A stretch of 23,456 bases of DNA from an uncultured virus (IMG/VR IMGVR_UViG_3300028602_000008) (Duplodnaviria; Heunggongvirae; Uroviricota; Caudoviricetes), in IMG/VR virus record IMGVR_UViG_3300028602_000008; one strand, given 5' to 3'. This document shows, one piece after another, positions 1,692 to 23,456 of the stretch (positions are counted from its first letter, which is position 1; each line of letters begins with the position of its first letter). Made by a program: the position numbers and the translations under genes. The notes beneath the pieces were generated by a model, which saw nothing but the letters and a program-made list of their open reading frames with translations, was not told the DNA's origin and searched no databases.

Positions 1692-1701
1692 ATAGGTTAA
1701 A

Positions 1702-1902: not shown

Positions 1903-1911
1903 CTTTCATAG

Positions 1912-2304: not shown

Positions 2305-2313
2305 GGTATTTCC

Positions 2314-3573: not shown

Positions 3574-3585
3574 AGTATTAACCTC

Positions 3586-4243: not shown

Positions 4244-4260
4244 ACAATCATGCGCATACC

Positions 4261-4283
4261 TTTATATAGATTTCCTATATAAG
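4261..4283. promoter_or_regulatory. overlapping divergent TATA boxes forming an inverted repeat
   Basis: TTATATAG (4262-4269), ATTTC, CTATATAA (4275-4282). The plus-strand TTTATATA ends 24 nt before ATG 4292, which is leaderless-type spacing. Confidence 0.6.
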
Positions 4284-4291
4284 TGACGGGT

Positions 4292-5470
4292 ATGAAAAGA
4301 ACAAATCCCGGCCGTCCACCCGCAGACGAAGTACATACCGAAGCTGCAAAACAGGTACTGGATGCCAATAAAATCGTCGGTAGTGACAAAACCGATGAAC
4401 TATTGAATCGAGCTAACGAAATGCTGGCAAACACCGCAAAGTCCACATTACTGGATGCAGCAAACCTTAGTGCAAAGAAAGCCGTGGTTCTGGCCAAGCG
4501 AGAATTAAGAGAGGCTCAGGAGGAAGAATCTGATGTTACCCCAAGGGGTGGGAATTTTAAGATAAACGGCATGTCTGCTGACGATATTCGCACCATGGCC
4601 GAAAGTCTGCCAGAAGCACAACGCGAATCTTTTATTAGACAGGCGCTGGGCATGCCGACTGGTGGAAATCCGATGTTAGGAGCATTTCTGCAAAATAAGA
4701 GTCAACCTCAGGCAGTTGCACCCATTGAACATTCTGGTCCGATGACCTTGAGTGAGGCTTTACAGTCCATGATGGGTCTCATGACAATGCAGATGACAGC
4801 CCAACAGGCCAGAGCGGAAGAATGGAGACAACAGCAGGAGTTTGAACGTCAAGCTCACGAACGTCGTTTGGAAGAGATTAGAGCAGCTCGGGGGGAGGTG
4901 CAGCAGCAGGGGCCAAGTCCAGAAGTGGAAGCTCTAAAATTGCAGATGGATTTTTACAAAGACACCATTAAGGAGCATCAGGCACTTATCAAGGAAATGG
5001 CTGCCAATAAGCCCACTGATGCTGTCGATCAGATGAGAAAAGAGAATTTCGAGCTGACTAAAAGCATCCTCGAAGGCCAGAAGGCTCAGATGGAAGAGAA
5101 AGTTCGCAGCATGGAGGCCAGGCTGGGCGATGCAAACCGCAATACAATGAACCTGGGTGAGCTTATCAAGGCAGCCAATGCCAATGGCGCAAATCTACAC
5201 CAGGGCGACTCCACGGACCTGCAGGTAGCAAATGACCATGAGTTTAAAATGAAACAGTTAGAGATACAAGAAAACAGAATAATCAACGAAACGAATGCTA
5301 GACAAGCAGAAGCAGCAGCCCGTCAAGCAGAGGCTGAGAGAACAGTTGAAACTGTGAAAACATTGGCTGCAACTTTAGGAACTGCGTTAGTGCAAAGTCG
5401 ACTGGCCCCGAAAAAAGATCTGGCGACATCCAATCCCCTCATTCAGAAGATTGCTGGGGCAGTGCAATGA
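4292..5470 (+). CDS. Gln/Glu/Met-rich coiled-coil protein
   Basis: 392 aa from ATG 4292 (the track start is GTG 4283). Long heptad-like helical runs and a mildly hydrophobic C-terminal helix. ATGA overlap with the next gene. Confidence 0.8.
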   Translation: MKRTNPGRPPADEVHTEAAKQVLDANKIVGSDKTDELLNRANEMLANTAKSTLLDAANLSAKKAVVLAKRELREAQEEESDVTPRGGNFKINGMSADDIRTMAESLPEAQRESFIRQALGMPTGGNPMLGAFLQNKSQPQAVAPIEHSGPMTLSEALQSMMGLMTMQMTAQQARAEEWRQQQEFERQAHERRLEEIRAARGEVQQQGPSPEVEALKLQMDFYKDTIKEHQALIKEMAANKPTDAVDQMRKENFELTKSILEGQKAQMEEKVRSMEARLGDANRNTMNLGELIKAANANGANLHQGDSTDLQVANDHEFKMKQLEIQENRIINETNARQAEAAARQAEAERTVETVKTLAATLGTALVQSRLAPKKDLATSNPLIQKIAGAVQ

Positions 5471-5826
5471 CCTTAGAACGATTGGATGCGATCTTGGAAA
5501 CATACAAGGTAATGGCAGATGACATTGCAGATGACAACACGGCAAAAGCGATGTTAAATCAATCTATGGTAGTTGGAATTGATGGGACCGTGGCAATAGT
5601 TACCCATTCCAATACATGGATTACGTCGCTTTCCTTTCTACAGTCTGCCATTAATGACATACCCGTAACAGCCAACCAGGAAATAGCATTAATGGTTTTA
5701 AAGGTCGCTAACGAGCTGTGGCCAACATTTATATCCGCTGCAGGCCAGAGTACTAAGAAGACAAATCATATCGCTGGAATTCTAACCAAGCTAATTCAGG
5801 AGATAAGAGATGCCCCTACCAGTTGA
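5467..5826 (+). CDS. hypothetical protein (119 aa)
   Basis: Coupled to the upstream gene by an ATGA overlap and overlaps the downstream gene. Confidence 0.7.
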   Translation: MTLERLDAILETYKVMADDIADDNTAKAMLNQSMVVGIDGTVAIVTHSNTWITSLSFLQSAINDIPVTANQEIALMVLKVANELWPTFISAAGQSTKKTNHIAGILTKLIQEIRDAPTS

Positions 5827-6736
5827 AAATATCATAGATGAGAAATACGGTGTTAATGGACCATTTCGGGTCTATCAGGTACCAGAAGGTCAAGGTTTAG
5901 AGGAACAGGCAAGGCCGGATTTCCGGCAGCCCATTAGTTTTGACGGAAACGATATGCCGCTGGTATATTTGCAGCTTACAAAGAATCCGTTGACTAACAA
6001 ATTTGTGCCGTATGCGGTATATTACGATGCCAGTCAATATACAGATGATCAGATTCTGTCAATACCAACTCTAGGGGAGCTGGGAACGAAATGTTCCTAT
6101 TGTCAAGCCAGAAACGATGCATCTAAGGCCTTGGGTATCCCGGACACACCAATCCAGAAGGGTGTTGAAGCCCTGCAGAACATGCAGAGACCAGTCCAGC
6201 AACCATCCCCCCAGAACACGGACTTGGTTCCCTATGGGGGCCAGGGTGATAACTGGTCGTCAGAGCCCATGGGTCAGTCCGAGAGGCAGCCCGATAGATA
6301 TATGGATGTCGGAAATATTATAACGCCTAAGTTTATTCCGGCAGCCATTGATGTTTTCTCTAAGGTCTTCTGTGAGCCATTCGGAGAAGCTATCCTGAAA
6401 ATTGGCATGGCCGGCTTGGCCAGCATAGCTGCAGGATGGGCGTCGGAGGGAGGCACCCAGGCCGCATGGCGCAAGATTTCTGAGGACATTGTTCGGGACT
6501 ACAAGGTTTGCCCAACTGATATTCCCAGGATCCAGCAGAATGTCATGGCCATGAAAGAGGCTCTGATGAAGGATAAAGCCAACATCCTGGGTGCGATGTC
6601 GGCAGGCACATTCAAGTCCTTTGGCCAGGTCGCTAAGGAACATGGTTTTGAAGTCTCCGGTCAGGCTAGCCTGTCTGGCAGAGCTTCGGTAGCCGTTACA
6701 CCTCTCAGGAGAGGCCCAGGAAGGGCCATTGATTGA
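5810..6736 (+). CDS. hypothetical protein with CxxC and an amphipathic Gly/Ala segment
   Basis: 308 aa with AGGAG upstream. Contains KCSYC, a Pro/Gln linker and the segment ILKIGMAGLASIAAGW. Confidence 0.75.
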   Translation: MPLPVENIIDEKYGVNGPFRVYQVPEGQGLEEQARPDFRQPISFDGNDMPLVYLQLTKNPLTNKFVPYAVYYDASQYTDDQILSIPTLGELGTKCSYCQARNDASKALGIPDTPIQKGVEALQNMQRPVQQPSPQNTDLVPYGGQGDNWSSEPMGQSERQPDRYMDVGNIITPKFIPAAIDVFSKVFCEPFGEAILKIGMAGLASIAAGWASEGGTQAAWRKISEDIVRDYKVCPTDIPRIQQNVMAMKEALMKDKANILGAMSAGTFKSFGQVAKEHGFEVSGQASLSGRASVAVTPLRRGPGRAID

Positions 6737-6737
6737 G

Positions 6738-6956
6738 ATGGGTGCTCCTGAATTACAAAAGGCTGTGAAGTTGCTTCGAGAGAAGCAGCTTTTCCCAGCT
6801 AAAATTCGAGATGCTCAGAGCCTGGTTGTTGCCAGTGGCCACAGAATAAATGAAATAGGTGTTGCGTTATACTATGCAGAAAAGGGAGATACCCGTAATG
6901 CGAGTTTAAATGCTGGTAAAGCAGCAGATGCAATTACTAGGCTGTTGGGCCAATAA
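6738..6956 (+). CDS. small helical hypothetical protein (72 aa)
   Basis: ATG 1 nt after the upstream TGA. Its TAA abuts the stop of the convergent RHH gene. Confidence 0.65.
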   Translation: MGAPELQKAVKLLREKQLFPAKIRDAQSLVVASGHRINEIGVALYYAEKGDTRNASLNAGKAADAITRLLGQ

Positions 6957-7121
6957 TTACTCGACTGCGGGTTTCTGTCTTGTTTTTTGGGATACTGGGT
7001 GTTCCAATTTCCATTTTGTTATTAAGTTGCGAACTACGGCGCTGGCTGTCGTTCCTTCCTGTCTGCATCTTATTATGAACTCGTCTTTATCAAATTCATC
7101 CATTTTTATTACCAATGACAT
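6957..7121 (-). CDS. ribbon-helix-helix (CopG/Arc/MetJ-like) regulator, 54 aa
   Basis: Not in the track; read manually: MSLVIKMDEFDKDEFIIRCRQEGTTASAVVRNLITKWKLEHPVSQKTRQKPAVE*. It shows a beta strand, helix A, a G-x-T-x-S turn and helix B (VVRxLI). Confidence 0.8.
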   Translation of the reverse strand: MSLVIKMDEFDKDEFIIRCRQEGTTASAVVRNLITKWKLEHPVSQKTRQKPAVE

Positions 7122-7246
7122 GGTATATACAGTGATATTTCAATACTTATAGTTGTCTATAAACTAACATTGTTATATTTCTATACATGCATATTTATAG
7201 GTGTTACTATGTAGATAAGTATCAATCAAATTGTAGAGGTATTGCA
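7122..7246. promoter_or_regulatory. divergent promoter/operator region between the RHH and capsid genes
   Basis: AT-rich. Inverted repeats TTATAG-TTGT-CTATAA (7147-7162) and TAACA-T-TGTTA (7165-7175). TTTATA at 7194-7199 and SD GAGGT at 7236-7240. Confidence 0.55.
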
Positions 7247-8428
7247 ATGGTACAAGGATATGGCAGAAGGGTAATCAATTTTAAGTTCCCCTTTTCGGTA
7301 ACGGCCACCACCCCCGGTGCGTCCGTACAGTGCGGAGACGATCCCGCATATGTTTATGAAGTCGGTCTGGAGCGATACTCCAAGCCCTGGGAATGCGCAC
7401 CCGACATGGTTGCTGAGCTAGAAGGTATCGAGATCATCGGCCCAGTGGACGCTTTTGGTGTCAGAGTCCCGATTAAAAGAGTTGCCCCGGTTATCGCCGG
7501 TAACGATATCGGTGAGAACATTTCTCTGAATGAGCACATGTGCCCCACTCTGAGAGATGGCGCACCCGAGTTAGGCTATCCGTTCAGGGATAGACAGACT
7601 TGCACCAACTTCGGCAAGGCCCTTCTGATGGGTGGAGATGCATCCACTACTTCCGTCAAGATTGGTCCGGGCGAAACTCTGAACTTCAAGGTCGAGTTCC
7701 CCACTCTGGCCCATGGCGGCGACGCAGCTATCGTCAACGACATGGAAATCAAGGCTCACATTGCCTTTGCCAAGGGACAGGATCAGATGCTGAATGCTCT
7801 GAAGGCCAGCTCGTCTGCTGAAATCAGCGCTGCAGCCAATTCTTCCCAGATTCGGCAGCTCGCGATTCTCGGTGATCTTGAGATCGCTGATGTAATTGGT
7901 GCCCAGACTATTGATAGGTCCGTCCCAGCTACGATGGATGAATGGTCCAGCTTGAACATGGGTCAGAACTCCGATGATCCTCAGATCAAGCGTATCATGA
8001 TCTATTCCAAGAACAATCAGCCCACAACTCCCAACCAGGAGATGGAGCTGGTAAGGGATGGTCAGTATGTTCAGGTACCTTTCCAGAACATGCGCTGGAC
8101 TTCCACTGAGAAGAGCTTCTTCCGGTTCACCCATTGCGGTGTCATCCCCCACCCGAACATGTTCCAGCTCAAGTTCGAGAAGGGCAACAGCCGGTACCCC
8201 ATGGTGTTCAACTGTGAGACCGTTGACAACCCGTTCATCATGCCTCAGAAGAGGTTGGTTGCAGACGTATCCTACGGTGGCCCAACTGAACTCGCCAGGG
8301 CATATACCCTGATGAAGGAGATCGGCGCTGTCAAGATCACCGATAACGGTGTAGCCATTCCCGCCTGGGCCGCTGGCGTCAGGGGATTCGAGATCGCTCT
8401 CTGGGGATACCAGTACACTCTCAAGTAA
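7247..8428 (+). CDS. probable major capsid protein (double jelly-roll fold inferred)
   Basis: 393 aa from the SD-supported ATG 7247. Strongest codon bias in the window (ATC, GTC, TTC, AAG, GAG, AAC). Two beta-rich halves joined by a helical linker. Heads the structural module. Confidence 0.6.
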   Translation: MVQGYGRRVINFKFPFSVTATTPGASVQCGDDPAYVYEVGLERYSKPWECAPDMVAELEGIEIIGPVDAFGVRVPIKRVAPVIAGNDIGENISLNEHMCPTLRDGAPELGYPFRDRQTCTNFGKALLMGGDASTTSVKIGPGETLNFKVEFPTLAHGGDAAIVNDMEIKAHIAFAKGQDQMLNALKASSSAEISAAANSSQIRQLAILGDLEIADVIGAQTIDRSVPATMDEWSSLNMGQNSDDPQIKRIMIYSKNNQPTTPNQEMELVRDGQYVQVPFQNMRWTSTEKSFFRFTHCGVIPHPNMFQLKFEKGNSRYPMVFNCETVDNPFIMPQKRLVADVSYGGPTELARAYTLMKEIGAVKITDNGVAIPAWAAGVRGFEIALWGYQYTLK

Positions 8429-8442
8429 AGGTAGGTGAAACA

Positions 8443-9216
8443 ATGCAACTAATATTTCCAATAGGTGACGTACCCCTGTCAACAATTCAGGGAGCATCCG
8501 ATTATTGGGTAAGACTCCCCAGAGGAGCTAAGCCCATAAGAAATATGTACACCGCAGGAACTCCGGCCATCACTGATGGTTATGGCGTCCTGATGGAGTC
8601 CATGAAGATTGACCAGTCCCAGGTTCTCAATGCCTGTGAGGTCGCTTGGGGCGTGGATGTAGATGGAGATATCGTAATTGTAGCTGATCCGGTAGACTTC
8701 AAGGTTGGAACCAACTCTCTGCAGTTTACTATTGCCGCAGGCGCTACTGCCGGTGATACTGCATCTGTAGCTGCTGCGTTCAACGTCACAAACTTCACTC
8801 ATCTGGAGTTCTGGATCAAGAGCAACATCGCCATGGCTGCCGGCTCGCTGACCCTCATCCTTGGTCTGACTAAGGGCGGTACCCCTGTGGCTGCCTGTCT
8901 CACCCCGGCACTGGTTGCTGGCGTCTGGAAGCATTGCAGAGTGCCTCTCGTGTTCACCCTGATAGGCTATGCCGCAAACTGCACACATCTCACTCTGAAC
9001 TATACCGTGGATGTGGGCGCTTGCGTCGTGCATCTGGATGATGTCAAGGCAGTAACTCTGGCGAGATCGGTCGAAGCTCTCAAGGTAGATCAGTTCATCG
9101 AGGATGATACCTACTTTGCCCTGAGTGCCGGCCTTGAGAATGACGACTGCAAGACAGGTCGTATTCTTATCGTCAACTACGAGACTCCTGAAGAAGAGTC
9201 CCGCTGCAGCAATTAA
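8443..9216 (+). CDS. probable abundant virion protein with a galactose-binding-like (CBM) domain
   Basis: AGGTGA SD and the same codon bias as the upstream gene. Motifs DFKVGTNSLQF, THLEFWIKS, AGVWKHCRVPL and VHLDDVK. Confidence 0.6.
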   Translation: MQLIFPIGDVPLSTIQGASDYWVRLPRGAKPIRNMYTAGTPAITDGYGVLMESMKIDQSQVLNACEVAWGVDVDGDIVIVADPVDFKVGTNSLQFTIAAGATAGDTASVAAAFNVTNFTHLEFWIKSNIAMAAGSLTLILGLTKGGTPVAACLTPALVAGVWKHCRVPLVFTLIGYAANCTHLTLNYTVDVGACVVHLDDVKAVTLARSVEALKVDQFIEDDTYFALSAGLENDDCKTGRILIVNYETPEEESRCSN

Positions 9217-9249
9217 GGAGACCCAACGGTCTCCCATATCTCCATTTTT
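9217..9249. terminator. hairpin with pyrimidine/T tail between convergent genes
   Basis: GGAGACC-CAAC-GGTCTCC (9217-9234) lies immediately after the TAA and is followed by CATATCTCCATTTTT. Confidence 0.65.
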
Positions 9250-9475
9250 AAGAGTCTTTCAAAAAAGATAATGTGCTTCTGATATCTTCCATTAGCTTAT
9301 TGATATCCATGTTCTTGTCAATTTTAGGCGGGAAGATTATCAACACGCCATGATTCAGTATTTGCATTTGCGAGCCATGTTCTATATGATTTACATGACA
9401 CCATGGCTTAGGCAACGTGATTCTCATCGATGACCCCCCCGTTTGGGTGGCCTGTACGATCCCCAATAAAGGCAT
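9248..9475 (-). CDS. AbrB/MazE/SpoVT-family DNA-binding protein
   Basis: QTGGSSMRITLPKPW...IEHGSQM...LIIFP is the archaeal AbrB-type swapped-hairpin motif. TTAAATA lies about 25 nt upstream on the minus strand. Confidence 0.8.
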   Translation of the reverse strand: MPLLGIVQATQTGGSSMRITLPKPWCHVNHIEHGSQMQILNHGVLIIFPPKIDKNMDINKLMEDIRSTLSFLKDS

Positions 9476-9602
9476 GCTAGATAGTTAAGATGTTTAAGGT
9501 ATTTAACATATTGTACGAAAAAGAATTATTCACATGGCCTTATTGCACATCTTTAACATATGTAAGCTACGTTTTTATAATCAGATTTTATATATTACCC
9601 CC
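9476..9602. promoter_or_regulatory. divergent promoter region with a 10-bp direct repeat
   Basis: TTTAACATAT occurs at 9502-9511 and 9552-9561. TTTTTATAA (9572-9580) ends 23 nt before ATG 9603. Confidence 0.5.
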
Positions 9603-10673
9603 ATGTCATTCGTAAAGCCAGGATACGCTCAGTGCCCCGTGGAAATACTCCCCGAGGTACAGGTTGATCAGGTTACTGTGGGTGGCGCAGAAATCGCAAG
9701 CTACAGCAACTATGGAAAGAGACTATTGGAAATCAGGAACTTGGTATCTTCAAGGCCTGCAGCTAATCCAATCGAAACCATCATCCACACGGATATTGGT
9801 GGTGAAGCCCAGAAGCTCTACAGCGCAGCTCAGCACAGCGTTCGAGTAGATCTAATCGAGGGTGCTGGAAACAAGGTCATGGCCAGGGACTATGCAACCA
9901 TCCAGCAAAAGAGCATAGGCGGTCCAGAAGCCAACATTATCAATCGTTGGCACTTGGTAGTCCGAAACTACAATCTGCTGGATCTTTTCCGTGTAGGAGT
10001 CAAACCTGAAAATGCTCTGACCATGATCGAACCACGTCTGGTTGATGCTGACAGAACTCGCATTCTCGAAGCCGCAAACATACTGGAACGCAGCATTACA
10101 GGCAACCTACCAGTTCACCAGGACCTGCTGAATCCAGCCGTGGAGGAGCAGTTTGAGACGATCAAAGAGGTAGATCGACAGATTCCCGCCCTAGCGGCAG
10201 TCACCGGCAGCCATATCCTTGGTGGCCAGGCGATATCAGTTCCCGCGGGCTACATTGCCGTGGTCTTAGGTTTCGCTGTAGATTCTCAGCAGGTCGTTTT
10301 AAACCTGGCTGGTGGTGCAGGGCCTTTCAACTGTTGCTTCATGTATTTCTCCAAAGACGATCTTGAGAATTACGTCAGGATGGATGCTGCGGGCATGCCA
10401 AACGGCATGGGTGGAGCTGCAGGAACCATTGATTTCGACATGAGATGCTTTATCCCAGTCACCAAAAAGTTCCAGCTCCAGATCGTGAATAACCACGCGA
10501 TTAGTCCCGTTGCAGCCAATCTTCGAGTTAGAATGAGATACGGCCTGAGGAAAAAGACATTAGTAGACCATGAGAAGTGGGGAATCCCCTACTCCACCAG
10601 CGAGGAAGCCGCCGCTGTTGCATTACTGGAGAAATACAAGATCAAGGATGCAGTTTACATTGGCGAGCAGTAA
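9603..10673 (+). CDS. probable second (minor) capsid protein, two beta-rich domains
   Basis: 356 aa from ATG 9603 (the track's extension lies in AT-rich promoter DNA). Beta-helix-beta layout and size are similar to 7247-8428. Confidence 0.45.
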   Translation: MSFVKPGYAQCPVEILPEVQVDQVTVGGAEIASYSNYGKRLLEIRNLVSSRPAANPIETIIHTDIGGEAQKLYSAAQHSVRVDLIEGAGNKVMARDYATIQQKSIGGPEANIINRWHLVVRNYNLLDLFRVGVKPENALTMIEPRLVDADRTRILEAANILERSITGNLPVHQDLLNPAVEEQFETIKEVDRQIPALAAVTGSHILGGQAISVPAGYIAVVLGFAVDSQQVVLNLAGGAGPFNCCFMYFSKDDLENYVRMDAAGMPNGMGGAAGTIDFDMRCFIPVTKKFQLQIVNNHAISPVAANLRVRMRYGLRKKTLVDHEKWGIPYSTSEEAAAVALLEKYKIKDAVYIGEQ

Positions 10674-10682
10674 GGAGCGAAC

Positions 10683-11054
10683 ATGCCAATCTACAGACAT
10701 GTTCAATTTTCAATCTTCCGCAAGGCCTTTGGTGGGGCATTTGACGCGGGATTGCAAAAATATGACATCATGAACGGGGATTCATCTCAGTCTGGACTTG
10801 GTGTACCCGCCAAGTCTATTACGATCTTGAATCATGGGCCGGGAATTGTCTATTATCAGATTAGTTCTAACGGTAGTGATTTGGGGGTTGTAGATGGGAT
10901 TGATTCTGGTCAGGGTAAAGTGTTCCAACCACAGGAGAGTGTCTACACGGCCCAAATATCGCTTTATACGGATAACGCAGGCACATTATTTTCGCTAATA
11001 GCAACTCCTGGTGAATGGACAGATGAAGAGCTGCTGGAGATCCTCGGAGGCTAA
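10683..11054 (+). CDS. small all-beta protein, penton/vertex-like single jelly roll (inferred)
   Basis: 123 aa with AGGAG upstream. PAKSITILNHGPGIVYYQISSNG...IDSGQGKVF...QISLYTD...FSLIA reads as consecutive beta strands. It sits just before the spike genes. Confidence 0.5.
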   Translation: MPIYRHVQFSIFRKAFGGAFDAGLQKYDIMNGDSSQSGLGVPAKSITILNHGPGIVYYQISSNGSDLGVVDGIDSGQGKVFQPQESVYTAQISLYTDNAGTLFSLIATPGEWTDEELLEILGG

Positions 11055-11056
11055 AA

Positions 11057-12085
11057 ATGCCACTCATGGTAATGCTTTCGATTAAAACTGATGTGGATAG
11101 CCTTTACCTCAGCCGTGATGCAGGTGGAACTTTATTTGTCGATGGGGCATTTGCGAGCGCTTCAGACACCAATGACGGGTTTTCCGCCACTTCACCCAAG
11201 CTTACCATCATGGGTGCAATCAATGCTGCAGGGCCAGGCTGGAAGGTCAAGATCGCCCCCGGCACCTATCCGGAGAATGTGATCGTGCCCCCAGGCTATG
11301 ACGGGATCCAGATTCAAGGCCGGGCCAGGGATGGTCCCAACAAAACAAGCATCGCACCAGCCACGGGTAGAGCCATATCTATTACTTGCGGGTATGCCGA
11401 AGTATCCTATCTGGAAGTCGTTGATACAGCCCCGGCCGTTGGCGATCTCCACAACACCTGCATTTACGCTACAGGTTACGGGCATACGATTCACAACATT
11501 GCCCTGTCAGGTGTAAGTGCTGGTTGCTGGGGAATTTGGTACCATGATGTCGATTATGGACTGATCCATGATTGCTATCTTGACGGAACATATAATATTT
11601 CCGGAATAGGTGTCTTCATTGGTGACGATTCCGTTGGCTGCAGGATCTTCCACAACTACATCACCCGCTGGGGTAGTGGAACTGGTAGCGGCTTAGGAAA
11701 TAACGGCTATGGCATTGGTCGTCACATCAATGCACAGCGCCTGGTTGTCGAAGAAAACGATATCATAGACAACTTCGTTGGTGTTTACATGTACCCGCCA
11801 GGTGCAACTGATATTGAAGGTGACTACGTAGGTCATAATAATTTCATGGAGAATGCCAGCTACGATGTTTATGATGAGCATGACTATCCAACATCAGCTA
11901 ACATAGTAGACGAGAATTTCTATGGATACACGGCTGGATTAGTGCCTTGGTATCTCGATTCCGATGGTGACAACATTGCTGACTACATAGTCAGATGCGG
12001 TCCCACGAATCGGGATAAGCATCCCCTCCCAAGTCCATTTAGCTGGAAGAACGGTAAGGGTAATGCTCGTGTTGGAGTGATTTAA
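11057..12085 (+). CDS. right-handed parallel beta-helix (pectin lyase-like, NosD/CASH) protein
   Basis: N-cap SDTNDGFSATSPKLTIMGAINAA...IAPGTYPENV, PbH1-like turns (IHDC, IFHN, VEEN, VGHNNF) and C-terminal DSDGDNIAD...DKHPLPSP. Confidence 0.8.
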   Translation: MPLMVMLSIKTDVDSLYLSRDAGGTLFVDGAFASASDTNDGFSATSPKLTIMGAINAAGPGWKVKIAPGTYPENVIVPPGYDGIQIQGRARDGPNKTSIAPATGRAISITCGYAEVSYLEVVDTAPAVGDLHNTCIYATGYGHTIHNIALSGVSAGCWGIWYHDVDYGLIHDCYLDGTYNISGIGVFIGDDSVGCRIFHNYITRWGSGTGSGLGNNGYGIGRHINAQRLVVEENDIIDNFVGVYMYPPGATDIEGDYVGHNNFMENASYDVYDEHDYPTSANIVDENFYGYTAGLVPWYLDSDGDNIADYIVRCGPTNRDKHPLPSPFSWKNGKGNARVGVI

Positions 12086-12086
12086 G

Positions 12087-12200
12087 ATGTATAAACCAAA
12101 GATCACCCAGAAGGGGGAGATCCCAGGGGATCTCTCATTGCCCAAACCTGCAACGATTTCAATCGAAGAAAAGGAAAAGAAGGAGGATGATACTGAATGA
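12087..12200 (+). CDS. small charged protein (37 aa)
   Basis: Read manually: MYKPKITQKGEIPGDLSLPKPATISIEEKEKKEDDTE*. SD GGAGTGA at 12074-12080. It fills the gap exactly and overlaps the next gene by ATGA. Confidence 0.55.
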   Translation: MYKPKITQKGEIPGDLSLPKPATISIEEKEKKEDDTE

Positions 12201-13630
12201 ATGGGATTGACAGATTCTCGTTTCACCCATCTGGCATAATCCTCTTTGACAATTTCCGAGGGGCAGCCATAGGTGCTATCTGGGGTACTGCAGTCGAAGT
12301 AGGAACCCTAATTACCATCGGGGCAGGCTACGTCAAGTTTGCCCATGCGGGAGCTGCAGTTGCAGGCCTTTCCATCCTACCATTTGGTCGAAACTTCGGT
12401 GTTCAAACCTCATTCGAGGCCGACATCCAAGCCGTGGCCGGCGTGGGCATGGTCAACCTCAACAGTGGCATCAGACTTTATGCCAATGTAGATAACTGGA
12501 TCCAGCTCGGGCCTTACATCGCAGGTGCAGAAACCCATGCCATCGCTCTCACCTACTCAGTTGATGGTGTCACAGGATCAGCACATCTACTTTCGGGAGC
12601 TGTTGACGATTTGGTTCGCAGAGTACGTCTTACTGTACTTGAAAACCATGTCGTAGCTTATGTCAATGGCATTCGTATGTATGATGTGGCTTTCACTGAC
12701 GCCAATAGGGATCTTGTAGACTACGCTTTCCAGCTCGTAACCGGGACTACGGCTCCTGCTGACGTACTGGATGTACGTTTTAGTAACATCAAGATCAGTA
12801 ATACGGTAGCTGAGCCAGAACCCTATCCAGCCAGGTTCAAAGGAACTATTTCCCTGCCAGACACAACTCCAGTGAACTTATCCTTCCCTGCATCTGAAAA
12901 TGGGGAAACGTTCGAGTTGGTACTGGGTGCTAATCTGGGCGAAGGTTACATGCCTTATGCCTATACCCATGATGTTGCACCAGAAACATATACTGATATT
13001 ACAGCCGCCTGTAATAACTTGACCACTGGTGACATCGTACTGCTCCCAGCCGTTCCAGCAAACGGAGATGCAGTATATTTTGGTGCTGACGAAAAGTTCT
13101 GGTGCATCGATGTCTACATGGATGGTGGTGTCAATAATACAGATAACGTCTTTGCCATCCAATATTGGGATGGTGATTCATGGGAAGATATTCCTGGTGT
13201 TACGGACGGTACCAATGGAGGGACTGCTGGCAGAACATTCTATCAAAACGGTAGGATATATTTCAGCCCACCTGCTGGCTGGGCTACTGTATCAACTGGT
13301 GCATACTTGGTTAGAATGGTCGTAACCACATTTGGAGTAGACGTTCCTAAGGCAACCCACATCCAGCTCGGATTTGATGCAGGCAGCTACTTCGATCAAC
13401 ATGCAGCGTTCTTGAGCATGCTTATGGTCAAGATGAAGCGGAGCTTCCCAGTGGCCGGTTATACCAGGTTCTACAGCGATGCAATGCCTTACTTGCAATG
13501 CTTGGGCGAACGGAACGTGGATATCAATGGTTGGAGATGTGAAGGCAACGCACAGGTTTCCTTTGAATTATCAGCCACTCCTACCAAAACGGTGACCATA
13601 GAGTATTTCGGATTCACCAGGAGGCTTTGA
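12197..13630 (+). CDS. multidomain beta-sandwich spike/adhesin (ConA-like N-terminal domain)
   Basis: LFDNF...W start and VRLTVLENHVVAYVNG...VRFSNIKI end of a ConA-like domain. A later module contains GDAVYFG...IQYWDGDSW...VTDGT. GGAGG upstream. Confidence 0.6.
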   Translation: MNGIDRFSFHPSGIILFDNFRGAAIGAIWGTAVEVGTLITIGAGYVKFAHAGAAVAGLSILPFGRNFGVQTSFEADIQAVAGVGMVNLNSGIRLYANVDNWIQLGPYIAGAETHAIALTYSVDGVTGSAHLLSGAVDDLVRRVRLTVLENHVVAYVNGIRMYDVAFTDANRDLVDYAFQLVTGTTAPADVLDVRFSNIKISNTVAEPEPYPARFKGTISLPDTTPVNLSFPASENGETFELVLGANLGEGYMPYAYTHDVAPETYTDITAACNNLTTGDIVLLPAVPANGDAVYFGADEKFWCIDVYMDGGVNNTDNVFAIQYWDGDSWEDIPGVTDGTNGGTAGRTFYQNGRIYFSPPAGWATVSTGAYLVRMVVTTFGVDVPKATHIQLGFDAGSYFDQHAAFLSMLMVKMKRSFPVAGYTRFYSDAMPYLQCLGERNVDINGWRCEGNAQVSFELSATPTKTVTIEYFGFTRRL

Positions 13631-15372
13631 TGGCTATAGCCAAATCGATCAACACCATTAAGTTAGATCCCCTGGGTGCCCGGAGAATCGACGAAACCTA
13701 CTACATCGGGAATCAAAGTGATCTGGTTGGCAGCCAGATCATTAACGTCCATCCGGCTGTAGCACTGGAAAAAAATATCTCTCTTATCAATGCCGTTTCC
13801 ATCTACGACCAGGGCGGAAACCTCATGAGCAAATGGTCTGAGGCTAAAAACCTTAATCTCGGAAGTTCTCAGCTTTGGACAAAACTTAATGGCGTTACTT
13901 CAACCAATGCCCTACGAGTTTTAACGATTCTGGGTGACTGGTATCAGTATTTCAACAAATTCGATGACGCTGGCACGTTTGGCCATGATCCAAATCAGGT
14001 TAACAGCCAGGGAGACGGATCAAAAAAAGTAGTCACAGGAATCGGATCAGCAAACATCACACTGGCAACTGATGCCGTCTTTGATACGGTGACTGATCTT
14101 TGGGGACCTTTTGCCATTTATCCACAACATGGAGGACACATATACATTACACTAACAGGCGTATATTATGTTGTTATGGCTATAAAATATAATGGTTCTA
14201 CATTGGCCTGTGCGATTTATGGTAAATCAATAGATGGGGGATTGAATTGGACATGGACGGCACTTGATACGAGTAATACCCACCGACAGTCAGATATTTC
14301 TTTCGCCGTTGATAAATTTGGCGATCTACATTTCGTTTGGAGGGAAAATGTAAGCAGTACTGTTGAGCATGTCAAATATCGAAAATTAACCGTTTCAACA
14401 GGTACCTTAGGTACAGTAGCGTACGTAAATATTGATGTCCTCCACCACAATTATGCCCCATGCATTCAGACACACATAGATGGACAAAAAATATGTGTAT
14501 GTTGGTGCGGGGATGGCTTTGGAGCAAGACCCGCAGATGCAAATATCTGTCTCCGAGTCCGAAATGCGGATGGAACCTGGGAATCAATCCAAAATATAAC
14601 TACTGATGGCGGAACTGGGTCAGATTTTTATTACAACGGTTGCTCAATTGATTACGACAGCAACGGCTACCGACACGTTTTAGCTTATACTGAAAATAGT
14701 GCGTTAACAAAAGCTAATTTACTTTACTTTCGGGAAACCGGTGCTGGGTTTAGTGCGCCAGTTAAAATAAATTCCGATGGCGCAGATTCCGATCATATGA
14801 ACCATTATTCTAAAATCTTGATAAATAAGAATAATGACGCCATAGTTGCATATGATATTGGTACCATGGGTGACATTAATCCGCTTTACATCAAAAGGAT
14901 CGTTGAAGGCACCCCCGGAACCAGAACCCTGGTAGAAGCCGGAGGCGCGGGAATCGGTGGAACATTACCACAAGTCCAACTGGATAGCTATAACCGCGTA
15001 GTTATTGTATACATGAGCGGTGGTAACTCGTATGGATATCGTATTTTATCTCCCACCTTTACCGTAATAGGCCCAAGATACGAGATTTATAAGGTAGCAG
15101 CAGGAAATACTCTAAGTTTCTTCCACATACCTTGGGGTATTCCACCAGTAATGAACGGTATCAATCCGAACATCATCCAACAGGGCATAATTATGCTATC
15201 ATCAGCTATAAAAGATGCCACTCCGGAAAAAACGGACATCAGTATCCTGTTGCAGGGCAACTGCGTATTGGGTGCTCCGGTGCTGCCTTCCGCAATGATC
15301 AAGTATACTTATAACATACGAGGGGCCATTAATAGGTCCAAATTCAATTCCGGATTTAATCCATCAATTTGA
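13630..15372 (+). CDS. BNR/sialidase-like beta-propeller protein
   Basis: Asp-box SIDGGLNW (14227-14250) and repeated blades (AVDKFGDLHFVW, DYDSNGYRHVLA, QLDSYNRVVIVY). TGATG overlap puts the start at 13630. Confidence 0.7.
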   Translation: MAIAKSINTIKLDPLGARRIDETYYIGNQSDLVGSQIINVHPAVALEKNISLINAVSIYDQGGNLMSKWSEAKNLNLGSSQLWTKLNGVTSTNALRVLTILGDWYQYFNKFDDAGTFGHDPNQVNSQGDGSKKVVTGIGSANITLATDAVFDTVTDLWGPFAIYPQHGGHIYITLTGVYYVVMAIKYNGSTLACAIYGKSIDGGLNWTWTALDTSNTHRQSDISFAVDKFGDLHFVWRENVSSTVEHVKYRKLTVSTGTLGTVAYVNIDVLHHNYAPCIQTHIDGQKICVCWCGDGFGARPADANICLRVRNADGTWESIQNITTDGGTGSDFYYNGCSIDYDSNGYRHVLAYTENSALTKANLLYFRETGAGFSAPVKINSDGADSDHMNHYSKILINKNNDAIVAYDIGTMGDINPLYIKRIVEGTPGTRTLVEAGGAGIGGTLPQVQLDSYNRVVIVYMSGGNSYGYRILSPTFTVIGPRYEIYKVAAGNTLSFFHIPWGIPPVMNGINPNIIQQGIIMLSSAIKDATPEKTDISILLQGNCVLGAPVLPSAMIKYTYNIRGAINRSKFNSGFNPSI

Positions 15373-15382
15373 GGTCTACAAA

Positions 15383-15823
15383 ATGCCCCTTGATATCGAT
15401 CCGACACAGATAACTGAGAAGAATGTTCCTCAAGTACTGGGTGCTATCGTGGTAGAATTACAGAACATGAATCGCAAACTCGACGAACATGCTATTGAAA
15501 TGGAGTCAAGACTAAATGAAAAAATTAATGTGCTGGCTAATCGAGTCGCTAGTATCGAGGAGAATCGAGCTGCAAATCCAAATTGTCAAATGCATTTAAT
15601 CGAAATAGGTAGAATAGATGCTATCGAAAAGACTCTAAAACTCCATGACACTTTGTTTTGGACACCTTTGTTGGTAACCAAAGAGGATATTCTTCCCTTT
15701 ATGTGGAAGTACAAATACATCGTAGCCGGGGTTACAGCCATCCTGACAGCATGGCTGGCCATCACAGATTGGGCGGTACGCGCCATACAGTGGGGATTAG
15801 TACCGCCAGGTGGAGTACCTTAA
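15383..15823 (+). CDS. coiled-coil protein with a C-terminal transmembrane segment
   Basis: Heptad N-terminal half and hydrophobic YIVAGVTAILTAWLAITDWAV. GAGGT upstream. Confidence 0.7.
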   Translation: MPLDIDPTQITEKNVPQVLGAIVVELQNMNRKLDEHAIEMESRLNEKINVLANRVASIEENRAANPNCQMHLIEIGRIDAIEKTLKLHDTLFWTPLLVTKEDILPFMWKYKYIVAGVTAILTAWLAITDWAVRAIQWGLVPPGGVP

Positions 15824-15848
15824 TATATAAATGTAGGAGATACAAGAT

Positions 15849-16022
15849 ATGATTCGCCCAATCGAGAGAGCGCCCAGGTGGCGCTGGCAAACCATGATTG
15901 ATGATAGAGACCGCCAATGGTTAGATGGAGATCAATCTCTCTATTTTAACCGTATAATGGATCTAGGTCAACCTATTGAAGATAGTGATGCAGCAACCAA
16001 AAAGTATGTAGATGACTCCACC
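15849..16022 (+). repeat. 58-codon N-terminal module, copy 1 of 3 (others at 18181-18354 and 21715-21888)
   Basis: Ungapped alignment by hand gives 47/58 aa identity with copy 3 and 40/58 with copy 2. Confidence 0.95.
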
Positions 16023-17480
16023 CAATCTGTCCTTATAGGAGCCCCAGACCATATTCCCAAAATTCAGGCCGATGGATCTGGTCTGGAAGACTCAGGTGCT
16101 GGAATCTCTGATTTCGAGATAGCCGGTGCCGTTGCTGCCCACACGGTAGCTATTGACCATAGTTTCTTGGCGGATCCTTTTGATATGACAGCCAGGGCTG
16201 CAGATTTCGTCCTTACCTGGGATGATGTTCATGGCAAGTGGATAGCTGCAGCCGCGCCTGGTGCCACTGGTGGTGAAGCAAATACAGCAGACAATATTGG
16301 TACTCACGGTATTGGAGTTTATGCTTCTAAAGTAGCTGCAGAACTTCAATTCCGAAATATAGTGGCCGGCAGCCCAAAAGTTACAGTTACGGCCGGTGCT
16401 TCGGGTGCAGAAACAATTGAAATTGATGTTGATCCAGCCAATATAGAATTAAGTGCGCTTGGGGATGTTGATTTAGCCGGCGTCACAGGAGCTTACGTAC
16501 TGACTTGGGTTGAGGGAGATGGAACCTGGCAGCCTAAAGAAGCCCCCGGTGCATCTGCTGAAGGCGCTACAGGTCCTATGGGTTTGACTGGTCCTACTGG
16601 CCCCATGGGTGCTACCGGCCCAGGCGTTGGTGCATCAGGTGCCACGGGAGCTGCAGGAGCTACTGGTGCCACAGGTCCAGCCGGCGCAACAGGTGCAGGC
16701 CTTACAGGTGCAACGGGAGCTACAGGATTAACAGGCCCGACAGGCCCTGCCGGAGCAGGTACTACAGGCGCAACGGGAGCTACAGGCTTAACCGGTCCAG
16801 CCGGAAGTACAGGTCCAACGGGTCCAGTCGGAGCAACAGGAGCTGCATCCTCAGGAGCTGGAGCTGCTTTCTGGTCAGATGTACCGGGAACCCCAACCAG
16901 GGTAAGCAATACACAGTTCACCATCACCGATGCAGGTAACGCTGGTCTCTACGACTTGAGCTTAGGCGTTGGAACCCTGTTGAAATGGCTGTCCTCGGGC
17001 GGTGATTTCTGTGTTGCTAGGGTTACTTCAGCAACTTACGGGTCTAACGTTGTAACCGTAAACCTCGTCGGATCAACACTGGCTGCAGGGTTTACCAACA
17101 TGCAGTACTGCCTAATGCTCTGTCCGTTTGAGCAAATCCTAATACCCGGATCACAGAGCGTTGCCAATGGGGTAGGCAAAACTTGGTGGGCTGCTCAGGC
17201 CTTCTATCCGATCTCATGTGATGGCCACGTAACCACAGCCGGAGTGACTAATGCCACAACCTGGGACCTCAATGACGATGGTACGACCCTCTTCGGCGGA
17301 ACATGTTGTAGCATTGCCAGCACGGCCGTAGTAACCCTAAATACCCCGGCTGGATCTCCTGCGACACCAGTTGCAGCCGGTAGTGCTGTCACTGCAGATT
17401 GTACAGCCATCAGCACTACCCCCCCGATAGATGCCTATCTCTATCTCTACTACATGCCGCTGGCGTGGAGGTACCGATGA
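15849..17480 (+). CDS. virion fibre 1 (shared N-terminal module, short collagen stalk, C-terminal beta domains)
   Basis: MIRP...RWRWQ...[11 protein letters not shown]-terminus, VLTW repeats, a GGEANTA...FRNI module and about 95 aa of Gly-X-Y. Confidence 0.8.
16563..16847 (+). repeat. collagen-like Gly-X-Y (mostly Gly-Ala/Pro-Thr) repeat, short
   Basis: GAT/GPT/GLT triplets with GxG interruptions. Confidence 0.95.
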
Positions 17481-18180
17481 GCATTGGCCAATTTGGGATA
17501 ATGGGCGGTTTAGTCGCCGCCTACCATTTAAATGCAGATGCAAATGATTTTAGTGGAAACGCTCGGCACGGAACGGGTACAGATATTAACTACGATCCAG
17601 TCACCGGTATTTTAGGTCCCGGCGCTAAATTTAACGGATCCTCGTCAAAGGTAACACTTCCCGCAGCATTATGGACTCTCGCGGCAAATGCTGAATTGTC
17701 AATAGCTGTCGTAATCCAATTACCAGCATCGTCTCCCGGAATACAACCAATCCTGGCACGAGGCCAAGTTCAAGAGAGCGGCGACTACTACGGATTTTGT
17801 TTAGGTGTGAATGCAAACTCGATTTATTATCAGCGAGGCTGTGGATACAGTACATTATATTCGATGTCTGCAACCATGGCCTTCGAATCCTCTAAACGAT
17901 ATCTGATAGGCTTGACCTATGCTCATACCACCACAGGCTACGCTACTCTGTATTGCATTCCTCTGTTTGCGGGTACGAAGATGTCTCAAGGAACCGCTGA
18001 TATGTGGAAAGGGGATGTATCAATTTCCGCACCATATGATCAAGGTTTGAACCTAGGAGCAAACCTCAGAAATACTGCAAATCAGTATTGCGGATTGACT
18101 ATGAACGAATTTCTGCTTTTTAACAAGATACTACCGATGAAATGGTACGTTGATTATGCGGCTTATCTTAGGGGGTTCAA

Positions 18181-18184
<4 letters not shown>
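17477..18184 (+). CDS. LamG/concanavalin A-like domain protein, copy 1
   Basis: [22 protein letters not shown]...GAKFNGSSS...[11 protein letters not shown]. The start at 17477 is supported by an ATGA overlap and alignment with the paralogue. Confidence 0.85.
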
Positions 18185-20939
<2,755 letters not shown>

Positions 20940-20943
<4 letters not shown>

Positions 20944-21671
20944 CATTAGGACAAAAGGGAGCCATGGCCAATTTGGCCTTTGGCTACCATTTAAATGCAA
21001 ATTCAAACGATTTTGCAGGAGGTTTGGTCCAAGATGGAGTAGATACCAATATAACATATGATGCAGCTAATGGTATTCTTGGCCCGGCTGCATCTTTTAA
21101 TGGATCTTCAAGTAAAATTTATTTAGGTTCGAGTGACATAACTACCCCTGTAACCAATGGATCATTCTCCATAATATGTCTTTTTCGAGTGCCTGCAAGT
21201 TTTTCCGTATTCCCTATCATTAGCAGAGGACTTGTTCAAGCTTCAGGATTAACATTTTATGGTATGGATATTTCCATCAATGCTTCAACAGGAATAGCAT
21301 TTTCTCGTTATATCGGAAACACGACGGTATATAATTCAACTTCAGGAAATTATACGTTTAATTCAGGCACAACGTACCTGATAGCTATTACTTATAACCT
21401 AACAACTGGTGCCAACGTATTTTACATTTACCCATTACGTCCTGGTGGAGCAAGTCTGATTGCTAATGGAGCCACACAAAGCAAACTAATAAACATAGCC
21501 TTCCATGCGTCTTATGATGAAGGTTACCATTTTGGAGCAAGATTACGGGCTATATCTCCAATTTGGGGTAAAGGGTTTCTCGGAGAAGTTTTAATATTCA
21601 ATGACATAAGAACTGCTAATTGGATCAACATGTACGCAGCACAACTTAGAGGACTTTTGGATTGGGAGTAA
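20940..21671 (+). CDS. LamG/concanavalin A-like domain protein, copy 2
   Basis: [11 protein letters not shown]...[15 protein letters not shown]...GEVLIFND...YAAQLRG aligns with 17477-18184. ATGA overlap with fibre 2. Confidence 0.85.
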
Positions 21672-21708: not shown

Positions 21709-23456
21709 ATGACCATGATTCGTCCAATTTCAAGAATGCTTCGGTGGCGCTGGCAAACTGTCATCGACGATAAAGACCGTATCTGGTTAGATGGAGATCA
21801 GTCATGCTATTTTAATCGGCTCATGGATCTCGCGCAACCTATTGAAGACAACGACGCAGCGACTAAACGATATGTAGATGACTCCACAGAAGCGACCGTA
21901 ATAGGTAATCCAGGAAATTTACCTGTCATCGATCCAGATGGGAGCGGTCTTCATGATTCATTAACATCACTTTCAGATTTCGAGGCTGCCGGAACTACCG
22001 CACTCCATATAATCACCCCAGGTGCTCATTTGGCATATGCCCCAGCTCACTATGCACGATCCAATATGTGGTGCAGCGTAGGGTTAGTGAATGCCGCCGA
22101 TAGAAGGTCTGTGAAAACTCCGAATCGAGTAACAGTAAATATAAATGAAATTGGATACGAACAAGTTGGGTCGTTGGTATTTGATCTTGACCTTCCAGCT
22201 TCCTGGGATACGATTGCCGGGACAAACTATTCAGTGGCCGCTAACCGTGCTGGAAAGGACTTTTATATATATAGTTGTCAACCAATAGCTGGCAACGTAC
22301 CAGTTTTCGTGATCTCGGCAGCCAAAACTTTCCCAAGTGGCTATGATGCTGTTAATAGCCGTAGAATTGTTCAATTCCATTGTATATGCCTAAGCGCTGG
22401 AGCAATAGCTGGACATCAACTAACTGGATTAATCACAGGTGATATCCTGCCAAGATCATTCCAGGATATCGAACATAGACCAAAAGCCGGTTTCATAGAT
22501 GGTATAGTTTGGGGAGGCGTTACAGATTTCGATATCTTGAATTACGCACCAGTTTGGAAGGCTATCTATATGGCTTCAGGAACTGGGGTCAACACTGCAT
22601 CCATCTTCGGTGCTGCGGCTTCAGCCACGCGAGATTGGAACGCATTTGTTGATGACTTTGGTAAGATTGGTTGCAGGATGATGGATGATGCAGAATTTCA
22701 AGTATTGTGTGCAGGTGTTGAAGAAGAAGTCAACATTGCTGGTTCTGCGAATCCAATAACGACAGGTGGACATGTTAGCACCACTGGTAGGCGACATTTG
22801 TCAAATATCGGCACAGAAGATGACATCGGAGTCTGGTGGCAATGGTTGTCCACCCAGTCGTTCCGAGTAGATTTCGATGGTTCTGTAATGGCGGCTGCAA
22901 AGACTGTTAACATTATCCATGCTGCCGCGCCTGGTGGTAATCCGGTCTATGTAGACTACGATAATGATGGTACTCCATATCTCTGTTGTACCATGGCTAC
23001 CACCACAGTTGATAAGTGGGTTGCATTTTCAACTACCCATAAGGTTTTAATCAAGCATCTTGCAGCCATCCCCGCGACTGCTGTACAGCTATACTTCGAT
23101 GAAGATGCCACACAGCCAAATCGATTGCTGGCTGCAGTTCCTCATCTAAAGAATGTCTATGTCGCAGTTCAACCTAATGCTGGTTATAAACTGCAGATAA
23201 CCTATAATGCGGCTCCCGGAACACCAGGCGTTGCTGTAAACTTCGATGATGGGGCCGATCAACGTTTGGAGTTCATTTCTCCGACATCTGCAACGGGTGT
23301 TATGGATATGGCTTTGGATGCGATCGCTTGGGCATACTACAATTTGGCAGGAACAGTTGGATCGTTGTACATGCAAGGAACGCTAGGCGACGTTAAGCTG
23401 CTCGGCGGCGGCGTTTGGAATAATGCGTCGCGTGCCGGGTCACGGGCGCGTCATGC
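21709..23456 (+). CDS. virion fibre 3: Mtd-like C-type-lectin-fold receptor-binding protein and probable DGR target (3' end truncated)
   Basis: Translated manually in frame +1 with no stop over 582 codons (start 21709 or 21715). The shared N-terminal module is followed by AGKDFYIY, FPSGY..NSRRI..FHCIC, GDILP.S..D..HRP, TTGGH...GRRHLSNIGTEDDIGVWWQW and GDVKLLGGGVWNNASRAGSRAR. Confidence 0.85.
   Translation, partial: MTMIRPISRMLRWRWQTVIDDKDRIWLDGDQSCYFNRLMDLAQPIEDNDAATKRYVDDSTEATVIGNPGNLPVIDPDGSGLHDSLTSLSDFEAAGTTALHIITPGAHLAYAPAHYARSNMWCSVGLVNAADRRSVKTPNRVTVNINEIGYEQVGSLVFDLDLPASWDTIAGTNYSVAANRAGKDFYIYSCQPIAGNVPVFVISAAKTFPSGYDAVNSRRIVQFHCICLSAGAIAGHQLTGLITGDILPRSFQDIEHRPKAGFIDGIVWGGVTDFDILNYAPVWKAIYMASGTGVNTASIFGAAASATRDWNAFVDDFGKIGCRMMDDAEFQVLCAGVEEEVNIAGSANPITTGGHVSTTGRRHLSNIGTEDDIGVWWQWLSTQSFRVDFDGSVMAAAKTVNIIHAAAPGGNPVYVDYDNDGTPYLCCTMATTTVDKWVAFSTTHKVLIKHLAAIPATAVQLYFDEDATQPNRLLAAVPHLKNVYVAVQPNAGYKLQITYNAAPGTPGVAVNFDDGADQRLEFISPTSATGVMDMALDAIAWAYYNLAGTVGSLYMQGTLGDVKLLGGGVWNNASRAGSRARH
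23386..23456 (+). other. candidate DGR variable region, 5' part
   Basis: 48/71 G+C. Scaffold codons are almost A-free and are interspersed with NNT codons (GTT, AAT, AAT, CGT, CAT) in the GGxW...GSR.R motif. Confidence 0.7.

Follow-up and report, generated by a model that had tools for sequence, protein, structure and literature searches.

The DNA analysed here (the window) is a stretch of 23,456 nucleotides from an uncultured tailed virus, IMG/VR record IMGVR_UViG_3300028602_000008, and ends within a tail-fibre gene. Its last 59 bases (23398–23456, the stub) are very probably the start of the variable repeat (VR) of a diversity-generating retroelement (DGR), located at the 3' end of a gene for a protein similar to the major tropism determinant (Mtd) of Bordetella phage. 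The element is of a kind that is already well known, another member of the ordinary tail-fibre DGRs. An earlier reading of the letters alone (the sequence-only reading) had taken positions 23386–23456 for the footprint of adenine-specific mutagenesis in a DGR VR and had predicted the sequence of the template repeat (TR). Our analysis supports this assignment: the stretch is the 5' part of a VR. Within the interval, the repeat proper opens at 23398 (CTGCTC...) and not at 23386; the first 12 bases (23386–23397) are upstream of the TR/VR homology of related elements. The complete cassette of target gene with VR, TR and reverse transcriptase (RT) was found in four relatives, referred to as vir525, L002, L003 and L004. 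The features of the gene end are as follows, with columns taken from the six-protein alignment described below.

21709..23456, plus strand: DGR target gene, coding for an Mtd-like tail-fibre (receptor-binding) protein; based on the open reading frame (ORF), Pfam, PHROG, homologues and a PDB profile comparison
23398..23456, plus strand: first 59 bases of the probable VR; the TR/VR homology in L004, L002 and L003 begins at the column of 23398
23404..23412, plus strand: GGC GGC GGC (G566–G568); AGC AGC AGC in the L004 and L003 TRs
23413..23415, plus strand: variable codon GTT (V569); AAT in the L004 TR; column V/L/H/F/G/Y
23419..23424, plus strand: variable codons AAT AAT (N571, N572); the same in the L004 TR; columns N/N/A/G/Y/N and N/T/T/G/Y/A
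23428..23433, plus strand: variable codons TCG (S574) and CGT (R575); ACG and AAT in the TR; columns S/A/A/A/E/A and R/N/D/D/A/F
23442..23448, plus strand: three further template-adenine sites, from the comparison with the L004 TR
23452..23454, plus strand: variable codon CAT (H582); AAT in the L004 TR; column H/A/H/S/D/Y

Contig L004 shares its gene order with the window over ~10 kb (88% protein identity, ~78% DNA identity). We searched for a template with the bases 23398–23456 written as an IUPAC pattern, in which "window base or A" was allowed at most non-A positions. The pattern gave no match in the viral contig collection. In the metagenome contig collection it matched exactly one stretch, located on L004, and this stretch is the TR of that contig and not its VR. 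The match begins 176 bases downstream of the start of the L004 VR, and 240 bases separate the start of the TR from that of the RT. The stub differs from the L004 TR at 11 sites (23404, 23407, 23410, 23413, 23414, 23428, 23431, 23432, 23444, 23448 and 23452), all of them TR adenines, with no difference at a non-adenine position; because the pattern permitted adenine differences only, this 11 out of 11 is true by construction, and the informative part of the search is that any match exists and that it occupies the TR position. As controls, the stub was compared with the L003 and L002 TRs, which resulted in 6 and 14 non-adenine mismatches, respectively, and no other stretch in 84 loci fits it with fewer than 6. 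Over the same 59 bases the L004 TR contains 17 A and the stub 6. An exact 54-mer across the border of gene and VR and the 59-base TR stretch of L004 both gave no match in the viral contigs; a search of the genome contigs with the alignment of the target gave 11 pattern matches, and none of these was confirmed.

A comparison of the stub with the DNA in front of it points to repeated overwriting. Upstream of the VR, the window and L004 are identical at 701 of 900 positions, including 152 of 300 third codon positions. Within the stub, all 42 positions at which the TR has no A are identical, 17 of them third codon positions (17/17 vs 152/300, Fisher p=1.7e-5). Such identity at third positions is predicted by repeated overwriting from a conserved template; it is not predicted by constraint on the amino acids. 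The VRs of the window and of L004 differ at 8 positions, every one a TR-adenine site.

The prediction of the sequence-only reading could be compared directly with the L004 TR. It had named five NNT codons as the variable positions (GTT 23413, AAT 23419, AAT 23422, CGT 23431 and CAT 23452). These codons read as given, and all five are AAT in the template. Its ambiguous (A/T) at TCG 23428 corresponds to ACG. By eye, the predicted 50-mer agrees with the TR at 46 of 50 positions, and the four misses are each a G in place of an A: AGC AGC for GGC GGC, CAG for CGG and GCA for GCG. The template thus holds more adenines than a single VR copy reveals. The adenines of AGC AGC AGC read G in every VR linked to the L004 and L003 templates. 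Of the three further adenine sites in the stub, 23442 is kept as A (TCA), 23444 is G (TR CAG, VR CGG) and 23448 is also G (TR GCA, VR GCG, a synonymous change). A near-copy with mismatches only at adenines, as had been expected, exists in the closest relative found; the window itself contains none and ends 59 bases into the repeat.

The variation of the encoded protein falls on the same codons. In an alignment of the target with five close homologues the tail ...LLGGG.W..A..AGSRAR. is otherwise invariant, and the sole variable columns are residues 569, 571, 572, 574, 575 and 582, which correspond to the codons at 23413, 23419, 23422, 23428, 23431 and 23452. Both marks of such a repeat are thus seen: variable codons derived from AAY (five codons are AAT in the L004 TR) and a scaffold poor in adenine (6 A in 59 bases). 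The VRs of the relatives are ~113 bases long and end a few codons before the stop codon.

The base composition of the contig end was recounted, and all numbers of the sequence-only reading were reproduced. The interval 23386–23456 contains 29 G, 19 C, 14 T and 9 A, which gives a G+C content of 48/71 (0.68) compared with 0.46 for the rest of the gene. A single one of the 23 complete codons ends in A (TCA at 23440, in the frame of ORF 21709–23454), vs 150 of 559 codons upstream in the gene (Fisher p=0.014); within four-fold codon boxes the ratio is 1/17 vs 100/283 (p=0.015). The many GCA, GGA, ACA and CCA codons noted elsewhere in the gene number 19, 16, 13 and 16, in sum 64. The scaffold from 23398 onward had been called nearly free of A, and it has six adenines in 59 bases (23419, 23420, 23422, 23423, 23442 and 23453), four of them within the two AAT codons. 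For 71-base windows of the whole contig, 1.2% reach 48 G+C and 0.9% have at most 9 A. Inside the gene upstream of 23386 none is as extreme (maximum G+C 42, minimum A 11), and 4 of 560 windows of 23 codons in the gene contain at most one codon ending in A.

The target gene is represented by ORF 21709–23454 on the plus strand with 582 codons; its 3' end is cut by the end of the window, and full-length relatives have 601 amino acids (aa). Residues 172–250 match Pfam PF21916 mtd_2nd (E 5.7e-11, 43.2 bits vs a cut-off of 24.6), the second domain of Mtd. The ORF also matches phrog_11262, annotated as "tail protein" (E 1e-25). The protein is 88–89% identical to the 601-aa proteins of L004, P0002 and P0003. 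A protein database search yielded 383 relatives at E<=1e-5 among 8000 candidates scored; PF21916 is carried by 120 of 120 among the matches listed, and the source records of two homologues give the name "phage major tropism determinant". A profile built from 26 sequences of the family was compared with the PDB and found six distinct sequences, all of them Mtd (1yu0–1yu4, 2iou; E 3.5e-19 to 2e-17). A weaker second stretch of this profile aligns the VR-coded tail with Mtd residues 321–376, and the VR-coded motif GG.W....GSR lines up with that of Mtd. The stub is in frame at the end of the ORF, so that the VR is situated at the 3' end of the target gene and the homology to Mtd includes the tail that it encodes. 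With the single target sequence, neither the PDB search nor an NCBIfam scan gave a match; the likeness to Mtd is remote, because a single-sequence search finds no PDB relative.

An AlphaFold2 (AF2) model of the 601-aa L004 protein has a mean predicted local distance difference test score (pLDDT) of 60.7. A Foldseek search with this model gave five matches at E<=1e-3, all Mtd entries, with template modelling (TM) scores of 0.35–0.38 on the target. For the VR-coded residues 539–595 the pLDDT is below 50, and for this reason the VR residues were not mapped on the fold. Two parts of the protein lie outside the Mtd plan. An N-terminal module of ~110 aa is common to the target and the neighbouring gene for a collagen-like fibre (18181–20943). 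A beta-rich domain of ~150 aa (residues ~385–540, ~22860–23330) is inserted within the region homologous to the C-terminal domain of Mtd and was modelled confidently (pLDDT ~86–93). L002, L004 and most homologues have this domain, whereas vir525 and the two targets of L003 lack it.

The cassettes of all four relatives have the order target, VR, TR, RT. The mismatches between TR and VR fall on TR adenines in 23 of 23 cases in L004, 27 of 27 in L002, 25 of 25 and 24 of 25 in the two VRs of L003 and 14 of 18 in vir525, where four mismatches are at other bases and the repeat has a 3-base indel at its 5' end. The sequence vir525 (Caudoviricetes sp., BK063673.1) was the sole match in the phage collection. 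It contains a "tail protein", then a repeat that shares 80% identity with the gene's 3' end and then an annotated reverse transcriptase; its protein is 51% identical to the target over residues 114–418 and 61% over the tail. L002 and L003 are IMG/VR contigs with the same layout and 60–63% protein identity. On L003 there are two adjacent Mtd-like targets (745–2076 and 2175–3251), and the VRs of both are written from a single TR. The L004 repeats diverge after ...GTC(G/A)C(G/A)GA, where the first letter of each pair is that of the VR and the second that of the TR; judged by its sequence, this boundary looks like a putative boundary of the type IMH/IMH* (initiation of mutagenic homing).

In L001–L004 the RT starts ~100–240 bases after the TR. 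The RTs of the relatives match RVT_1 and phrog_1423 (E 3.6e-120) and reach none of the NCBIfam cut-offs for RTs of the group II, retron and Drt types. Their best PDB match is the 328-aa chain 8ub7_A (E 1e-50), which the entry names "Reverse transcriptase" and which we take to be the RT of the DGR of Bordetella phage BPP-1; group II and retron RTs follow at E 3e-16 or worse. The motif IGxxxSQ is a mark of DGR RTs. Here, IGNxxSQ and YxDD are invariant in 26 RTs.

Parts of the window occur in 20 public sequencing runs; these metagenomes come from 10 studies of landfill, wastewater, sludge and aquatic sites. We compared assembled contigs of four runs. The X5 contig bridges 22959–23451 with 8 other letters over 493 bases and reads C at 23414 and G at 23419; by eye it also differs at 23452 and 23453. 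All four VR differences are at TR-adenine sites, and as they stem from the best-supported rows listed they are a lower bound, with further ones inside the VR possible. The 30 letters shown past 23451 fit the L004 TR with five differences, all at TR adenines (by eye). The X2 contig stops at 23410, and the depth in X4 rises from 5 over 23352–23410 to 19 over 23411–23456; X1 and X4 provided no further usable contig across 23398–23456.

Based on these results and on the layout of the relatives we propose the following arrangement and mechanism. We infer that the virus has its own TR and RT downstream in this genome and that they are active. Beyond the window, by analogy with the relatives, the rest of the VR and the stop codon would follow, then, starting ~60 bases after the stop, a TR of ~113 bases. 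An RT of DGR type would lie ~125 bases after the TR, with a 95-codon ORF overlapping its stop codon. The TR would be transcribed, and the RT would copy it into cDNA, misreading template adenines. For the Bordetella RT a rate of ~40% of template adenines is given in PMC5703328. Replacement of the VR by the cDNA would then rewrite the AAY-derived codons of the receptor-binding fibre tip, and the adenine-free scaffold codons would stay fixed.

Several observations weigh against this assignment. The window contains no TR, which leaves the template of this element itself unseen; a second copy within 3 mismatches of 23407–23427 is absent, no repeat family of the window touches the stub, and no RT family was found among the scanned window ORFs. 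The template used for the comparison is that of a relative with ~78% DNA identity, a different genome, and the pattern that found it admitted differences only at adenines. The variation seen in the X5 contig compares samples. Taken alone, the composition signal is real and modest (p ~0.01). The AF2 model represents the VR-coded part poorly and leaves the lectin fold of the tail unconfirmed. Finally, no gene for Avd, an accessory protein of most DGRs though not of all, was identified in the relatives, and the ORFs flanking the RT in L002 and L004 matched no Pfam, NCBIfam or PDB family. This does not exclude membership among the DGRs, because avd-less lineages are described in PMC5758913. The footprint itself becomes conclusive because the homology and the templates of the relatives add to the composition signal.

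Other explanations of the stub have to be considered. It could be a relic, a VR written by a past DGR whose TR and RT have since been lost or silenced, with the sequence frozen. We regard this as improbable. Decay does occur in this family, as the four non-adenine mismatches and the 3-base indel of vir525 demonstrate, and 23.4 kb of the window contain neither TR nor RT; however, the window ends before the place where these would be expected, and in each of the four relatives whose sequence extends beyond the target, TR and RT follow immediately. A frozen repeat is also difficult to reconcile with a stub that has no non-adenine difference from a relative's TR despite ~22% divergence around it, and with a near-identical contig from another sample that carries a different version of the VR at template-adenine sites.

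It is very improbable that no retroelement is involved and that the G+C-rich, A-poor stretch reflects a conserved, Gly/Ala/Arg-rich motif of a lectin fold together with codon choice. The peptide ...LLGGG.W..A..AGSRAR. is indeed conserved and rich in these residues, and the composition test alone reaches only p ~0.014. Constraint on amino acids, however, leaves the contrast at third codon positions (17/17 vs 152/300) unexplained. It also fails to account for the adjoining RT of L004 and for the restriction of the variation to exactly those codons for which the non-coding repeat of L004, 176 bases further downstream, has AAT or ACG. That the last 59 bases are an assembly artefact, arising from a wrong join or from VR and TR reads collapsed into one sequence, is hardly credible. 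Assemblies do break here (the window at 23456, the X2 contig at 23410), and the rise in X4 depth from 5 to 19 would be expected if short contigs of related repeats pile up. Nevertheless, the frame is unbroken, the codons of the stub can be aligned one by one with those of the relatives' VRs, and the independent X5 contig crosses the border and continues in register. The stub is moreover A-poor like a VR and not A-rich like a TR. The start of a DGR VR in an Mtd-like fibre gene thus remains our preferred assignment.

The arrangement is similar to the DGR of phage BPP-1, in which the target is likewise a tail-fibre receptor-binding protein with the VR at its extreme 3' end and in which TR and VR differ at adenines only, as stated in PMC3240598 and PMC5703328. 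The target differs from Mtd by its extra N-terminal module of ~110 aa and by the inserted beta-rich domain of ~150 aa (~390–535), both of which Mtd lacks. Unlike BPP-1, the relatives have a 95-aa ORF that overlaps the RT stop codon and no avd in the interval from target to RT. Target with VR, TR and RT on one strand without avd corresponds to Architecture A1 (core TR-RT) of Wu et al. 2018 (PMC5758913). That paper names four classes of DGR accessory genes, avd, HRDC, MSL and CH1, and the 95-aa ORF fits none of them as described there; CH1 proteins, for instance, are acidic and have 160–169 aa. In vir525 the cassette has the same order of tail protein, TR, reverse transcriptase and 95-aa ORF. 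Its protein differs from the target in having 385 aa and neither the N-terminal module nor the inserted domain, and its TR has no adenines in the GGC-GGC-GGC region.

The labels of the relatives point to different hosts. The host field of the vir525 record reads "Methanosarcinales", and if this label transfers, the window may belong to a virus of methane-cycle archaea, like the virus of ANME-1 (anaerobic methanotrophic archaea) for which a DGR is reported by Paul et al. 2015 (PMC4372165). The metagenome-assembled genomes (MAGs) with the closest cassettes are labelled Bacteroides, Methanosaeta and Saccharibacteria, which disagree, and more distant target homologues come from MAGs labelled Smithella, Geobacter and Bacilli. 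A comparison of window positions 1–20000 with the three MAGs behind L006, L016 and L005 gave no match. The same positions were compared with 392 genomes of the class of the Methanosaeta MAG (G001); 20 of them had matches at E<=0.01, the strongest to collagen-like repeat DNA. No spacer-like match to the window's virus was found in these 392 genomes. A 32-base match with 91% identity (window 5506–5537) is present in three genomes of this class. It was considered as a spacer of clustered regularly interspaced short palindromic repeats (CRISPR) and rejected, since no tandem or direct repeats surround it and it is thus not in a CRISPR array; it is probably a conserved gene segment or a chance match.

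A small ORF of 95 codons overlaps the RT stop codon in L004, L002, L003 and vir525. Its positions on four contigs are:

L004 1829–2116, minus strand: 95-aa ORF
L002 8770–9057: 95-aa ORF
L003 4530–4823: 95-aa ORF
L001 14405–14692: 95-aa ORF

None of 25 members of this family has a Pfam match below E 0.02, and none matches NCBIfam. The best PDB profile match has E 0.23, and Foldseek gave no match at E<=1e-3. An AF2 model (pLDDT 72.5) predicts a beta-rich protein with the order strand-strand-strand-helix-strand-strand, which is typical of oligonucleotide/oligosaccharide-binding (OB) folds. It is therefore predicted to be unlike Avd, which is a helical bundle. The Atlas pointed to Phi29_Phage_SSB through one cluster, in which 44% of the members carry this family (score 0.93); sequence comparison did not confirm the lead, and it was not adopted.

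The small ORF is closely coupled to RTs. In 78 of 80 genome loci encoding a relative of the 95-aa protein (from many bacterial and archaeal MAGs) an RT was matched, and in 68 of 80 it lies on the same strand within 150 bases, with the small ORF upstream of the RT in 50 and downstream in 18. Two gene orders occur: RT followed by the small ORF, or TR, small ORF and then RT. A search immediately before the RT for a TR with adenine-only differences from a VR succeeded in 20 of 77 loci; such TR/VR pairs also occur in 23 of 51 loci with the other gene order, where the arrangement is mostly TR, small ORF, RT. We found no description of an accessory protein of this type in the literature searched. The 95-aa protein is a candidate accessory factor of avd-less DGRs.

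The template adenines of these elements fall into two groups. In 27 TR/VR pairs from 20 loci (L001–L006 and 14 further loci; the pairs are non-independent, with related templates and several VRs per template), adenines in AA pairs read as A 172 times, G 117, T 77 and C 61 in the VR. For isolated adenines the counts are G 134, A 54, T 14 and C 11. The fraction of G is thus 134/213 for isolated adenines vs 117/427 for those in AA pairs. At third codon positions isolated adenines read as G 18 times, A once and T once. Sites of the isolated type in the window are 23404, 23407, 23410, 23444 and 23448. The four misses in the predicted template arose because such sites are unrevealed by a single VR copy. 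The two-class pattern is hard to explain by selection at the protein level alone. It suggests that isolated A may be changed to G by context-dependent copying or editing, and not by random misincorporation followed by selection. A broader reading, which we put forward tentatively and consider rather doubtful, is that these elements form an Avd-less DGR lineage with a new accessory factor in Avd's place and two classes of template adenines, neither of which we found described. The putative factor would perhaps bind cDNA or TR RNA.

From its genes, the window as a whole appears to be the structural region of a tailed virus whose fibres contain collagen repeats. A tandem two-gene module is present, in which ~250-aa paralogues without known family (17399–18184 and 20940–21671) are each followed by a fibre gene. 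Both fibre genes (18181–20943 and 21709–23456) open with the same module of ~55 aa (MIRP..RWRWQ..IW..G.QSC.FNRLMDL). The first contains long collagen repeats (Pfam Collagen, E 4e-48), and the second is the Mtd-like DGR target. The collagen-like Gly-X-Y fibres at 15849–17480 and 18181–20943 are the source of the G+C peaks at 16–17 kb and 19–20 kb, of nearly all repeat families of the window and of most weak archaeal DNA matches. At the left end, before a block of minus-strand genes, ORF 453–1691 has a PEGA domain (E 8.7e-10) and a weak match to a PHROG endonuclease.

The adenine-depleted footprint punctuated by NNT codons at the end of a contig was sufficient to predict a template, of which 46 of 50 positions were recovered from a relative. 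The limit of this method is set by template adenines that are always G in the VR, as these are not visible from one VR copy. The assembly broke off within a repeat of the kind that itself makes assembly difficult. For truncated DGR targets and their partner contigs this suggests that a VR alone may suffice for recognition and retrieval. If the small RT-coupled protein and the two classes of template adenines hold true, both observations would bear on how Avd-less DGRs work and on the dependence of adenine mutagenesis on sequence context.

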